Shown: positions 46,263 through 63,688, numbered from the stretch's first letter. The stretch: 64,000 nucleotides of DNA from an uncultured Gemmatimonadaceae bacterium (GCA_963829055.1 CAWHHI010000011.1:256001-320000), one strand, 5' to 3'. The notes: a model not told the origin generated them from the sequence alone. Translations and numbers: made by a program.

Positions 46263-46787
46263 ATGAACCCCGATGCAGCTCGGCCGCGCACCCGTCACCA
46301 CTCCCACGTGGCGGCGCTGTACACGCCCGACCAGCGACGCCGGCGCGATTCGTCGCGCTGGACGCTCGTCCAGGGCATCCTCGCTCCTCTCCAGTTCCTC
46401 GTGTTCCTGGCCAGTCTCGCCCTCGTCGCGAGATTCCTGATCACTGGTGAAGGACTCGCCGCCGCGACGGCCTCCGTGGTCGTGAAGACGGTCGCGCTCT
46501 ATACCATTATGATCACCGGCTCCCTCTGGGAGCGAGACGTCTTCGGACAGTACCTGTTCGCGCCCGCGTTCTTTTGGGAAGACGTCGTCAGCATGGCGGT
46601 GATCGCCCTCCACACGGCATACCTCGTCGCGCTCGTCAGCGACTGGCTTGCGCCGAGGGCCCTGATGATGCTCGCGCTCGCCGCGTATGTCACGTACGTC
46701 GTGAACGCCGCCCAGTTCGTGATCAAGCTGCGTCAGGCGCGGCTCGGTACGCGATCGCTCAACGCCGATCTCCAGGCCGCGACATGA
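46263..46787 (+). CDS. bchF: 2-vinyl bacteriochlorophyllide hydratase
   Basis: [54 protein letters not shown]. Confidence 0.96.
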
Positions 46788-48032
46788 CCAGCGCGCTTCC
46801 CGTCCTGCGCGAACGCGGGCAGCGCGAGGTGTTCTGCGGGCTGACAGGGATCGTGTGGCTCCATCGGAAGCTACAGGACGCGTTCTTCCTCGTCGTCGGG
46901 TCGAGAACGTGCGCGCATTCTCATTCAATCCGCGGCAGGCGTGATGATCTTCGCCGAGCCGCGCTTCGCGACAGCGATCCTGGGTGAGCGCGATCTGGCC
47001 GGCCTCGCCGATTGCGACGTCGAGCTCGACCGCGTCGTCGGGCAGTTGCTCTCGCGGCGCCCCGACATCCGCACGCTGTTCCTCGTTGGGTCGTGTCCGT
47101 CGGAAGTCATCAAGCTGGACCTGTCGCGAGCGGCCCAGCGTCTCTCTCGCCTGCACTCTCCCCGCGTGCGAGTCCTCAGCTATTCGGGCAGCGGCATCGA
47201 GACGACGTTCACGCAGGGCGAAGACGCCTGTCTCGCGGCGCTCGTCCCCGAGATGCCGTCGTCGTTAGGCACGCAGCCATCGCTGCTCGTCGTCGGCGCT
47301 CTGGCGGACATTGTCGAAGATCAGATGGCGCGGCTGTTCGAGCAAATAGGGATCGAGCACGTCGGCTTCTTTCCCGGCCGGCGCGCACGCGAGCTGCCCG
47401 CGGTCGGGCCGAACACGAGAGTCCTGCTCGCGCAACCGTTCCTGGGCGACACGCTTCGCGCGCTCGTTCGACGCGGGGCGAGACACCTACCGAGCTCGTT
47501 CCCGCTTGGCGCCGAAGGCACGACGCGCTGGCTCACGACGGCGGCGCGCGACTTCGGCATCGCGGATCGAGCCCTCTCCGCGGCCATCGAGGCGCCCATG
47601 AAACGAGCGACGGCATTGCTCGCACGCTATCGCAGCAGGCTCGCCGGCAAGCGCGTGTTCTTCTTCCCCGATTCGCAACTCGAGGTCCCGCTGGCGCGCT
47701 TTCTCTCGCGTGAGTGCGGCATGGAGTTGATCGAGGTCGGGACGCCGTATCTGGATCGCGGTTCCATCGGCGACGATCTCGCCCTGCTTCCCGAATCGGT
47801 GCTGGTGAGCGAAGGCCAGGACGTCGATCGACAACTCGATCGATGCCTCGCAGCAGCCCCAGACCTCGTCGTCTGCGGACTCGGACTCGCGAATCCGCTC
47901 GAAGCTCGTGGCGTTCGTACCAAGTGGTCGATCGAGCTCGTGTTCTCGCCGATACACGGCTACGAACAAGCGGGCGATCTCGCCGAGCTGTTCGTGCGCC
48001 CGCTCGACCGCCGCGAGCGGCTGGCGGTATAG
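46784..48032 (+). CDS. bchN: Dark-operative protochlorophyllide reductase subunit N (single +1 slip near 46919)
   Basis: [29 protein letters not shown](L)[42 protein letters not shown]. Confidence 0.95.
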
Positions 48033-48033
48033 C

Positions 48034-49551
48034 GTGCAACTCACCGTGTGGACGTACGAAGGGCCTCCGCACGTCGGCGCCATGCGGGTAGCGACGGCCA
48101 TGCGCGGCGTACACTACGTCCTCCATGCTCCGCAGGGCGACACGTACGCGGACCTGCTGTTCACAATGATCGAACGGCGTGACGAGCGACCGCCGGTCAC
48201 CTACACGACGTTCCAGGCGCGCGATCTCGGTGGCGACACCGCCGAACTGTTCAAGCGAGCCGTCGCCGACGCGTACGAGCGATTCGCGCCGGACGCGATG
48301 CTGGTGGGCGCGTCGTGTACCGCCGAGCTCATTCAGGACGACCCCGGCGGACTCGCCCGCGCGCTCGGCCTAACGATTCCGGTGGTGCCGCTGGAGCTTC
48401 CGGCGTACTCGAAGAAGGAGAACTGGGGAGCGAGCGAGACGTTCTATCACCTGGTGCGCGCGCTGGCGGATCAATCGCGGCGTCCGCTCGCGCGCGACGC
48501 GGCACGGCGGCCGAGATGCAATCTGCTCGGCGCCACGGCGCTCGGGTTCCGTCACCGCGACGACGTGATCGAGGTGGAGAAGCTGCTTGCCTCGATCGGC
48601 ATTGACGTTCACGTCCGCGCTCCCTCTGGCGCGACCGTGGCGGACATTGCCCGATTGGGTGAGGCCGACTTCAACGTCGTCCTCTATCCCGAAGTTGCCA
48701 CAACGGCGGCGACGTGGCTGCAGCGCACGTTCGGCCAGCCGATGACGAAGACGGTTCCGATCGGCGTCGCAGCGACGCGCGAGTTTGTCGCCGAGGCGGC
48801 GCAGCTCGCGGGCATCGAGGCGCCGAGCGCGGAGGTCGTGGCGTCGCGGCTGCCGTGGTATTCGCGCAGCGTGGACTCGACGTATCTGACGGCCAAGCGC
48901 GTGTTCGTGTTCGGCGACGCGACGCACGCGATCGCCGCCGCCCGTATCGCGACCGAAGAGCTGGGCTTCACGCTCGTGGGGCTCGGCACGTACAGTCGCG
49001 AGTTCGCGCGCGACGTTCGGGCCGTGGCGGAGCGGCATGGCCTGACGGCGCTCGTGACGGATGACTATCTCGACGTGGAGACGGCCATCACCGAGGCGGC
49101 ACCGGAGCTCGTGCTCGGTACACAGATGGAGCGCCACATCGCGAAGCGCCTCGGGATTCCCTGCGCTGTCATCTCGGCGCCGGTGCACGTCCAGGACTTC
49201 CCTGCGCGTTATGCACCGCAGATGGGAGCCGAGGGCGCGAACGTCATCTTCGATACGTGGGTGCATCCGCTCATGATGGGGCTCGAGGAGCACCTGCTCG
49301 GCATGTTCCGCGAGGACTTCGAGTTCGCTGACGGCAGGACGCCATCGCATGTAGGCGGAGCGCCCATCGAAGTGGCCGTCGCCGTCGGGCCAGCGAGCTG
49401 GTTGCCGGACGCGGAGCGCGAGCTCGGCAAGATCCCGTTCTTCGTTCGTGGGAAGGCACGTCGCAACGTCGAGCGGTTCGCTGCAGACAACGGGCTGCGA
49501 GAGATCTCGGTGGAGACCGTGTACGACGCCAAGGCTCACTTCGGCCGATGA
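48034..49551 (+). CDS. bchB: DPOR subunit B
   Basis: GTG start; [44 protein letters not shown]-terminal PCP-red domain [13 protein letters not shown]. Confidence 0.96.
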
Positions 49552-61732: not shown

Positions 61733-61743
61733 TCGCGACGCGG

Positions 61744-62190
61744 TCACTCGTCGGGGGCCGATCCGTTGCCACCGAGGTAACGCGACTCGGGAGGGCGCTC
61801 GGTCGCGTACGCATGTACGGTGTATCGGATGCTGCGATCCGCAGTCTCCTGGCGTTCGAGCCTGAACCCGGGTTCGTGCGGTGGGCGGGCTACGATGAAG
61901 CTGAGCGCGGTCGTCTGCCGGCCGTACGCCCGATCGTACGCCGTGACTTTCACGTAGCGGCCGGGAAACGCGTGCGTACACGCGGCGAGCTCCATGAGGA
62001 GGCCGGCCGGGTCGCGGAGATCGAACATCGGCGTGCCCCACATCTCCCAGTACACGTTGCGCGGGTGCGGGTCGTCGGTGTGCTCAATGGACACCGGCCA
62101 TCCCTGATCGATGCAGTATTGCACCTGAGCCGTGATCTGGTCGACGCTGAAATCCGGGAGGAACGAGAACGTCCCCTGTGTCAGGCGCAT
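61744..62190 (-). CDS. cbbS: RuBisCO small subunit, red type
   Basis: [33 protein letters not shown], red-type C-terminal extension [10 protein letters not shown]...[13 protein letters not shown]. Confidence 0.96.
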
Positions 62191-62236
62191 TGGCGGTCCT
62201 CCGGGAGGACAGAGTGGGCGTTAGGCATCGACATGC

Positions 62237-63688
62237 TCACAGCGGCACCGGCATCGCGACGGCGTCCGGCACGTCGGTGGACGTGAACTCGAACGTGATG
62301 TCCCGCCAGAGGTCGATCGCCTTGCGCAACGCCGGTGACCACCGCGCGGCGCGCTCGAGAATCTCCGGACCCTCCGCCAGGTAGTCCCGGCCCTCGTTCC
62401 GAGCCTGAATCATCGCCTCGACGGCGACGCGGTTCGCGGTCGCGCCGGCCGCAATCCCGTCCGGGTGGCCGATGGTACCGCCGCCGAATTGCAGCACGAC
62501 GTCTTCGCCGAGGTAATGCAGCAGCTGATGCACCTGCGCGGCGTGAATGCCGCCTGACGCGACCGGCATGACGCCTGGCAACGACGCCCAATCCTGCTCG
62601 AAGTACAGACCGAGCGTCGGGTCGGGGTCGATCTTGTTCTCGCGTAGCGTGCGATAGTAGCCGCGTACGGCGTGCGGATCGCCCTCGAGCTTCCCCACCA
62701 CCGTTCCCGCGTGGATGTGATCGACGCCGGCCAGGCGCATCCACTTGGCGATCACGCGGAAGTTGACGCCGTGATTCTTCTGGCGCGTGTACGTGCCGTG
62801 CCCTGCTCTGTGGAGATGGAGGATGACGCCATTGCGCCTCGCCCACTTCGCCATCGACTGGATCGCCGTGTAGCCGACGGTCAGGTCGATCATGATGATC
62901 ACGCTGCCGAGCTCCTTCGCGAACTCGGCGCGTTCGTACATCTCTTCCATCGTGCCGGCGGTGACGTTGAGATAGTGACCCTTGATCTCACCCGACGCCG
63001 CGACGCCGCGGTTGACAGCCTCCATGCAGTACAGGAAGCGATCGCGCCAGCGCATGAACGGCTGGCTGTTGATGTTCTCATCATCCTTCGTGAAGTCGAG
63101 GCCGCCGCGCAGCGCCTCGTAGACGACGCGGCCGTAGCTGCGTGCGGAGAGGCCCAGCTTCGGCTTCACCGTGGCGCCCAGCAGTGGCCGGCCGAACTTG
63201 TTGAGGTACTCGCGCTCCATGACGATGCCGTGCGCCGGCCCCTGGAACGTCTTTGCGTAATGCGGCGGGATGCGCATGTCTTCCAGCCGCAGCGATTTCA
63301 GCGCCTTGAAACCGAACACGTTACCGATGATCGACGACGTGAGGTTGGCGATCGACCCTTCCTCGAAGAGGTCGACGTCGTAGGCGATGTAGGCAATGTG
63401 CTGATCCGTGCCGGGAACGGCGTCCACGCGGTAGCATTTCGCCTGGTAGCGCTCGTAGCTCGTTAGGCGGTCCGTCCACACGACGGTCCACGTCGCCGTC
63501 GACGACTCGCCTGCCACGGCCGCGGCCGCCTCTTCGGGGTCGACGCCCTCCTGCGGCACGAGGCGGAACGCGCAGAGCACGTCCGAGTCGCGCGGCACGT
63601 ACTCGGGGTTGTAGTAGCCCATCTCGGCGTAGGGAGTAACTCCCGGAGCCCAGCGTCCCTTCGCCGCACGATCGCCAATCTTCGCCAT
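62237..63688 (-). CDS. cbbL: RuBisCO large subunit, form I red type (IE-like), 483 aa
   Basis: [51 protein letters not shown] (carbamylated Lys), [34 protein letters not shown]; no frameshift. Confidence 0.98.

Follow-up and report, generated by a model that had tools for sequence, protein, structure and literature searches.

A form IE-like RuBisCO cassette within the photosynthesis gene cluster of an uncultured Gemmatimonadaceae bacterium

The prevailing view is that aerobic anoxygenic phototrophs live as heterotrophs and that the capacities for phototrophy and for carbon fixation spread in separate transfers. A stretch of 64,000 nucleotides from an uncultured Gemmatimonadaceae bacterium (GCA_963829055.1, here genome G000; the stretch, G000:C11:256001-320000, is called the window) raises the question of how Calvin-Benson-Bassham (CBB) cycle genes came to lie among bacteriochlorophyll genes and what they might do there. 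A complete Gemmatimonadaceae-type photosynthesis gene cluster (PGC) in this genome holds the cassette cbbL-cbbS-cbbX-prk and a kinase/regulator pair between pufBALMC and puhABC (Table 1).

The cassette, its host and the integrity of the locus

The genes cbbL, cbbS, cbbX and prk are each one unbroken frame, and their GC content and codon use agree with those of the PGC and of the genome. Genes were called by NCBIfam and Pfam profile scans. A preliminary description of this DNA had reported four intact genes ending 30 bp from the puhC stop, and both the genes and the gap are as it gave them. The convergent bchFNBHLM-acsF-lhaA-puhABC genes are also where it placed them; to these we add a frameshift in bchN near 46919 and an open reading frame (ORF) of 109 aa between bchM and acsF. 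It saw the CBB genes as joined to the PGC. The linkage is real, but the cassette lies within the cluster, and the whole block is an island; both points had been missed. Because the response regulator, the kinase, a small ORF and pufCMLAB continue past cbbL on the same strand, the CBB genes are inside the PGC and not at its edge.

NCBI proteins labelled Gemmatimonadaceae bacterium match RecA (contig C16) at 96-97% identity, and this is the sole taxon name among the 120 matches, 5 of which carry one. This supports a host within the Gemmatimonadaceae; a proteobacterial host was rejected on these matches. The position of acsF and the split H subunit had earlier been taken to indicate Gemmatimonadota, in agreement with RecA, and the H subunit is split in 34 of the 35 PGC loci compared, that of G000 included. 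The groups pufBALMC, bchFNBHLM, bchCXYZ, bchID and acsF-lhaA-puhABC all stand in one cluster of the Gemmatimonas type, with which the PGC of genome G128 is syntenic. The pufLM genes, which the preliminary description wanted checked, are present in it. The best PDB matches of PufL are 9h19 and 7o0u, which we take to be Gemmatimonas complexes. The genome measures 7.78 Mb in 20 contigs and is 86% complete with 3.95% contamination; acsF is present and bchE was not found in it. The genes bchG and bchP are adjacent (window 42787-42825), and a PucC-like gene that stands 3' of bchG in G128 and G125 is missing here.

The predicted cbbL product keeps the KDDE motif and catalytic residues and, with cbbS adjacent, would be a carboxylating form I enzyme. 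A quick tree built from 62 hand-picked sequences places 17 cbbL rows from Gemmatimonadales genomes and metagenome locus L121 in a single clade (support 85), which nests in a 36-row group with Methylacidiphilaceae, Mycobacterium and Pseudonocardia (SH-aLRT 95). Form IC (Cupriavidus, Afipia, Nitrobacter, Sinorhizobium) is a separate clade (99), and deeper nodes have 82-84. Form labels of the references are our assumption, or phylum-level from PMC9561532. On this tree the G000 cbbL is called form IE(-like), and it would extend form IE to a Gemmatimonadales clade. Its closest named relatives are from Acidobacteriota, Actinomycetota, Methylacidiphilaceae and Dormibacterota. The nearest PDB entries to the predicted phosphoribulokinase (PRK) are 9qko, entered as a cyanobacteria-specific phosphoribulokinase, and 9qkn, entered as a uridine kinase. 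RuBisCO and PRK, named earlier as the marker pair of the CBB cycle, are both there, with a form IE-like identity that had gone unnoticed. Form IE cassettes of this kind make up a Gemmatimonadales-wide clade (L011, L013-L019, L021-L026, L223-L225, L283-L285), mostly from non-phototrophs. They usually have the same sensor-less kinase and regulator, and the accessory fba-glpX, tkt or tal varies.

An assembly chimera or misbinning would account for such a junction, and the genome assembly is error-rich and shows some contamination. The junction is repeated elsewhere. Among 80 metagenome PRK loci, two have puh genes beside prk: L120 covers cbbX-prk-puhC-puhB at 99.2% nucleotide identity over 2250 bp, and L121, from a related species (77-81% identity), repeats the prk/puhC junction. 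In G298, a bin of another genus, kinase-regulator-cbbL-cbbS-cbbX-prk faces puhC-puhB-puhA-lhaA on a single 7.5-kb contig; the genus label depends on the binning of that contig, and pufLM is not assembled in G298. At the other end, contigs of read runs X1 and X4 bridge the kinase-ORF-pufC side. The 160 bp from the cbbL upstream region to the regulator are bridged by none of the contigs listed and are contiguous in G298. Three DNA runs from three studies give coverage in every one of the 30 bins of C11:306001-326000, mostly at depth 2-8. X1 is possibly near the source sample, X3 dates from 2018 and X4 from 2017. The block lies mid-contig, with flanking genes syntenic with congeners. A chimera, for which the preliminary description had proposed looking at reads across puhC-prk, was rejected on these independent contigs and runs, and chance with it. 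A chimera is refuted on the puhC/prk side and extremely improbable for the locus as a whole.

A decaying island, with phototrophy lost, is also very improbable. The genes bchN, pufM, bchX and crtF carry frameshifts in the assembly and several haem genes are split, as real decay would leave them. However, short-read contigs of X1 and X3 (two studies) do not have the one extra base that causes the pufM frameshift, the essential glyS has three splits of its own, 4 of 8 housekeeping queries come up in pieces, and coding density is patchy genome-wide. From the pufM base and the split glyS we read the PGC frameshifts as sequencing errors. Selection on the island genes points the same way. Against L121, dN/dS (with dS near saturation) is 0.05 for cbbL, 0.15 for prk and 0.11 and 0.08 for the other two cbb genes, similar to the 0.10-0.19 of the puh genes; by these ratios the linked cassette is under purifying selection. 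Most genes in window 1-41000 are cut into short frames, as elsewhere in the assembly, probably by sequencing errors.

Table 1. Features of the PGC and the CBB cassette (positions in the window, or on contig C11 where marked)
Feature	Position	Strand	Remark
Block, window part: PGC, cbb cassette, own haem genes, bacteriophytochrome	35867-64000	.	whole block 51.2 kb, G000:C11:291867-343086
Haem oxygenase, hemY, hemF, hemE, hemA	35842-41583	-	profile scan; several frameshift-split
bchP, bchG, ppsR, aerR (B12-binding)	41600-46041	-	profile scan
bchF (46263-46787), bchN (frameshift near 46919), bchB, bchH, bchL, bchM	46263-54998	+	profile scan
109-aa ORF without family, bchM-acsF interval	54995-55324	+	kept at same place in related PGCs
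acsF, aerobic cyclase	55333-56412	+	profile scan
lhaA (PucC/PUCC family)	56457-57869	+	profile scan
puhA, split reaction-centre H subunit: Ht 57951-58166, Hc 58163-58654	57951-58654	+	
puhB, puhC (puhC 59268-59741)	58651-59741	+	profile scan
puhC/prk convergent junction, 30 bp	59742-59771	.	spanned by L120, L121, L020
prk, PRK07429 type, not proteobacterial PRK15453 type	59772-60755	-	383.7 bits (curated cut-off 236)
cbbX, red-type RuBisCO activase	60764-61702	-	474 bits (curated cut-off 459)
cbbS	61744-62190	-	profile scan
cbbL, form IE-like, catalytic motifs intact	62237-63688	-	750.6 bits (curated cut-off 438)
Inverted pair of 12-bp word, 124-164 bp 5' of cbbL	63812-63852	.	candidate regulator-binding site, weak
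Response regulator, NarL/LuxR-type	C11 320149-320796	-	past window edge
Histidine kinase, 220 aa, sensor-less	C11 320793-321455	-	past window edge
88-aa ORF	C11 321487-321753	-	past window edge
pufC-M-L-A-B	C11 321842-325616	-	past window edge
bchO (+), bchZYXC and crtF (-), bchI, bchD, ORF, bacteriophytochrome (+), hemL, hemB, hemC (-)	beyond puf, up to C11 342273		

Origin and distribution of the linkage

The three linked cassettes form one clade in the prk tree (98.5/100) and in the cbbS+cbbX tree (99.5/100); the cbbL tree leaves them in an open fork. In the puh tree, G128 has the PGC nearest to G000 and L121 (94.8/82), and the tree gives no resolution on G298 as sister to G000. G128 has the same gene order and runs from pufC through a small ORF to puhC with nothing between, an empty site; its small ORF and that of G000 are weakly alike (E 0.04). 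As the linked cassettes are one clade and the site in the sister PGC is empty, the cassette was inserted once, between the small ORF after pufC and puhC. The linkage has outlasted divergence of PRK to 64% and of PuhC to 57%.

A second empty site is found at the level of the genus. Both pufL and cbbL are missing from all six congeners, and in each of these a single contig carries the left flank of the cluster together with the right one, with the tightest join, in G003, at 57 bp. The smallest missing block is the 51.2-kb stretch listed in Table 1. It carries its own hemA/E/F/Y/L/B/C, and the host has a second hemA/E/C/B/L operon on C5. Over 1 kb of flank G000 is 79-80% identical to four congeners and 76% to G004, an unrooted comparison; provided that these identities reflect nesting, a single gain would be simpler than two or more losses. 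Marks of mobility were not seen: there is no tRNA in 90 kb, no shared end word of at least 11 bases and no integrase among the island ORFs scanned, and the tetranucleotide distance ranks 74 of 144. A transfer, if there was one, would thus be old or from a similar donor. The six other genomes of the G298 genus have neither prk nor pufLM. Directly left of the island are a NUDIX gene, phytoene synthase, a CruF-like gene and a CarH-type regulator (window 31649-35350), which are partly retained in congeners G003 and G004 and are therefore read as host genes.

Form I cbbL occurs in 14 of 400 family genomes and in 8 of 400 phylum genomes, and puhB is above cut-off in 65 of the 400 family genomes (the unpublished G013 and G162 enter these denominators only). 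Photosynthesis genes are carried by 6 of the 14 cbbL-positive family genomes. Five genomes with reaction-centre genes and form IE cbbL have them unlinked (G297, G361 and G378 of genus g75; G336 and G419 of g65), and in four of these the puhC-pufC junction is assembled with no cbb gene in it. No prk was seen beside cbbL in the g75 loci or in G336, and the g75 genomes have NiFe hydrogenases. In an Acidobacteriaceae bin (L091:58-12819), a form IC cbb operon that includes fbp and a proteobacterial prk is separated by 5 kb from genes resembling aerR, ppsR and a bacteriophytochrome; puf, puh and bch genes are absent from that locus. The G000 species itself is not rare in soil and rhizosphere: 19 DNA runs (11 of soil, 7 of rhizosphere and 1 of freshwater sediment), drawn from 16 studies, contain 0.32-0.57 of the sampled words.

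Carbon cycle, electron supply and regulation

G000 holds tkt (split by one frameshift), tal, class I fbp, gap-pgk-tpi, rpe and rpiB, of which pgk, tpi, rpe and rpiB were called only by short motifs and context. The class I fbp is without assigned FBP/SBP specificity. Class I aldolase (PF00274) had no match in G000 and was matched in one of four relatives, and PF01791 matches were rejected as deoC. A divergent class II aldolase (PF01116, 475 aa, G000:C16:1137356-1138783) lies near pyruvate kinase and transaldolase and comes from clusters that are frequent in Gemmatimonadota and Acidobacteriota. The cassette has no dedicated regeneration enzymes, and regeneration of ribulose bisphosphate (RuBP) must use housekeeping genes. 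The preliminary description had held that a lack of RuBP-regeneration enzymes would speak against CO2 fixation; most were found, save glpX, and the aldolase is divergent. In the sister family, transaldolase adjoins prk in all four form IE cassettes read, which fits a transaldolase bypass (PMC8927339). A regeneration kit this small, as predicted from the genome, suits modest flux.

Electron supply is a separate matter. A type II reaction centre yields ATP, not reductant. Alternative complex III and a nuo operon are encoded, as is a formate dehydrogenase subunit that scores above cut-off. So is a form I CO dehydrogenase (CODH): its active-site loop, coxMSL order and maturation genes are there, although the CODH genes are frameshifted in the assembly; among four congeners tested the form I CODH is intact and full-length in two and partial in a third. 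A second cox-like operon, with a form II loop, is at G000:C6:358451-362427. NiFe hydrogenase and SoxB were not found in G000 (86% complete), and G298 has a NiFe hydrogenase. Because G001 and G005 have intact form I CODH and no cbbL, cbb in this genus goes along with the PGC, not with CODH.

In most family cassettes read, whether from phototrophs or not, the kinase/regulator pair is found with cbbL, so it is part of the cassette and would predate the PGC linkage. Both proteins score under the MadR/MadS, NarL and MctR cut-offs, no paper on their role was found, and the cassette has no LysR/CbbR gene. PpsR boxes (TGT-N12-ACA) are found 5' of bchG, bchC, crtF/bchI, hemC and, with one mismatch, bchF. 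The gaps of 88 bp between pufC and the ORF and 31 bp between the ORF and the kinase, and the overlap of kinase and regulator, leave little room for a separate promoter, so the pair may be read from the puf promoter. A scan of the puf-cbb stretch gave no promoter-like and three terminator-like sites, which is chance level, and folds of the two gaps were no better than shuffles. The pair of 12-bp words 5' of cbbL is a pattern defined after looking, with 16 matches genome-wide, two of them here. Motif discovery on 26 cbbL upstream sequences gave top palindromes in 6-7 of them against shuffle maxima of 2-5; as related sequences are not independent, the candidate operator is only a lead. In 7 of the 26 upstream regions (L011, L017, L019, L021, L022, L223, L225; G000 is without it) a CRP/FNR-like palindrome stands before cbbL. 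A REP-like palindrome (window 63962-64000 to C11:320026) lies in the regulator-cbbL interval and has about 100 short matches genome-wide.

We consider the locus best read as serving light-assisted mixotrophic CO2 fixation in air, with a probability of roughly 0.55. The type II centre and alternative complex III would run cyclic electron flow and so supply proton-motive force and ATP, and NADH would be supplied by organic substrates or, with complex I running in reverse, by oxidation of CO or formate. PRK would act with RuBisCO, whose activity CbbX would maintain, to fix or re-fix CO2, and housekeeping GAPDH, PGK, TPI, class I FBPase, transketolase, transaldolase, epimerase and isomerase would regenerate RuBP. 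More speculatively, a kinase/regulator pair read from the puf promoter would tie cbb activation to PGC expression. The cell would gain extra carbon and, when light lets it do without respiration, a sink for electrons; the CBB cycle is established as a redox sink in photoheterotrophic purple bacteria (PMC3203349, accessible part). Several results count against this reading. No PpsR box stands in the cassette or in front of cbbL, the kinase or pufB, and for cbbL and the kinase allowing one mismatch brings up none either; PpsR control of cbb was rejected for this reason. glpX was not found in the 86%-complete genome, the sole FBP aldolase candidate is divergent, and the cassette is without the fba, glpX and tkt that some unlinked relatives carry. 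Both traits are unlinked in five of the six family genomes that have both, G298 being the sole linked one; the search for cbbL near puhC suggested earlier for Gemmatimonadota genomes thus gave one linked case in the family. Unrelated inserts occupy the same puhC-pufC junction in other PGCs. RNA run X20 gave 26 short pieces at a depth of about 2, nearly half of them diverging from the stretch, and was not used. As far as the accessible text of PMC9758169 goes, Vulcanimicrobium, which combines form IE RuBisCO, a type II reaction centre and acsF, showed no autotrophic growth and no effect of light on cbbL.

Two other readings compete with mixotrophy, which we favour over both because the regeneration kit is minimal and suits modest flux. 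The cassette may be a passenger in a convergent junction that tolerates insertions, working independently of light on CO or H2 or in dark mixotrophy. We regard this as unlikely, though it is the stronger of the two. Eight of the 14 cbbL-positive family genomes have no reaction-centre or puhB match, the kinase/regulator pair is older than the linkage, and no PpsR box marks the cassette. Other inserts at the junction are five genes in G361 (L112:6353-12298; a protein kinase and a PP2C phosphatase among them) and tspO in G153. The form I CODH of G000 and the NiFe hydrogenase of G298 also fit, form IE being tied to trace-gas oxidation in the accessible part of PMC9561532. Yet the arrangement persists through deep divergence and in two genera, and the congeners G001 and G005 do without cbbL despite their CODH. 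Aerobic photolithoautotrophy proper, with CO2 as sole carbon source, light as energy and CO (G000) or H2 (G298) as donor, is doubtful. PGC, RuBisCO, activase and PRK do stand in one block, both linked genomes have an inorganic donor enzyme, complex I and alternative complex III are present, and one alphaproteobacterial aerobic anoxygenic phototroph is reported to grow in this way (10.1101/2021.04.29.441244, accessible part). The minimal cassette without dedicated regeneration enzymes, the lack of any hydrogenase or SoxB found in G000, the frameshifted CODH genes, the large genome of heterotroph type and, within what PMC9758169 makes accessible, the failure of a cultured form IE phototroph to grow autotrophically all speak against it. 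The label "photoautotrophic" in the preliminary description is not shown: no hydrogenase, SoxB or dedicated SBPase was found, and the cassette has no PpsR box. Improbable to a like degree is a wider proposal, that the 51-kb block (pigment, reaction centre, haem pathway, light sensors and form IE cassette) moves between Gemmatimonadaceae lineages and makes aerobic photolithoautotrophs of CO/H2-oxidising soil heterotrophs, the puf promoter driving the cbb regulator. If true, it would be a one-step transferable photoautotrophy module uniting bacteriochlorophyll phototrophy and trace-gas chemosynthesis.

Comparison with known systems

What appears to be new is the nesting of a form IE cassette in a PGC, and this on a block whose site is empty in congeners; the parts and their co-occurrence are known. 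The accessible literature (including PMC8547001, PMC8779627, PMC10576062, PMC13702023 and PMC7701988) gave no account of cbb genes placed within a PGC of Gemmatimonadota or of form IE in the phylum; subscription papers, figures and most supplements could hold one. Both traits share one conserved locus here, and empty sites match at two levels, that of the cassette in the PGC and that of the PGC in the genus. A single piece of DNA may thus bring light use and carbon fixation at once. The locus offers a defined target for asking whether CO2 is fixed in the light by aerobic bacteriochlorophyll phototrophs, and whether photoautotrophy can move as one unit. The occurrence in soil and rhizosphere contrasts with PMC10581226, which in its accessible part has no reaction-centre genes in soil Gemmatimonadota metagenome-assembled genomes (MAGs).

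That RuBisCO in Gemmatimonadota MAGs has precedent had been said before, but this understates the prior art: RuBisCO, PRK and reaction-centre genes in one such MAG are already published (PMC6748926, PMC6704655, PMC10581226; accessible parts). Six soda-lake MAGs have form IC rbcS-rbcL-prk, with expression not detected (PMC6748926, as far as accessible); PMC10581226 reports RuBisCO type IC/ID, with no IE in its reference set as accessible; and Table 3 of PMC7844134 has one glacier MAG positive for puh and RubisCO, linkage not being stated in the accessible part. These soda-lake and wastewater MAGs resemble G000 in phylum, reaction-centre genes, acsF, form I RuBisCO and PRK, and photoautotrophy or mixotrophy has been proposed for them, unproven. 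In the accessible text, their RuBisCO is form IC (or IC/ID) from Alphaproteobacteria, the soda-lake ones are of order SG8-23, and no PGC linkage is stated. G000 differs as a member of the Gemmatimonadaceae with form IE-like cbbL, a PRK07429-type PRK and the cassette inside the PGC, and comes from soil and rhizosphere. Form IC identity with the published soda-lake MAGs was rejected, since its cbbL is 71-75% identical to IC references and falls outside the IC clade. G661, the sole form IC phototroph in the phylum sample, has a PRK of proteobacterial kind, and its 15-kb cbb contig holds no PGC gene.

Blastochloris, which we take to be an anaerobic purple alphaproteobacterium, has CBB genes embedded in its PGC. 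For this we depend on its citation in the accessible part of PMC9758169. The same source describes Vulcanimicrobium alpinus WC8-2 (Eremiobacterota), like G000 an aerobic anoxygenic phototroph with acsF, a type II reaction centre, type IE RuBisCO and PRK; it differs in phylum and reaction-centre lineage, in having hydrogenase and Sox, and in a RuBisCO-like protein among its photosynthesis genes. Gemmatimonas phototrophica and G. groenlandica have the same PGC gene order, with acsF between bchM and lhaA, a split H subunit and puhC facing pufC. They are photoheterotrophs without a CBB cycle (PMC7844134, accessible part) and without the cbb insert that G000 has. Form IE has been listed for eight phyla, Gemmatimonadota not among them in the accessible part of PMC9561532. 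The form IE cassettes of trace-gas oxidisers (Actinomycetota, Acidobacteriota, Verrucomicrobiota, Dormibacterota) resemble that of G000: cbbL is 74-89% identical, the order cbbL-cbbS-cbbX-prk is the same, and form I CODH co-occurs. In none of the 80 best named genome loci are puf, puh or bch genes found within up to 10 kb of cbbL, unlike G000, where the same four genes lie between pufC and puhC.

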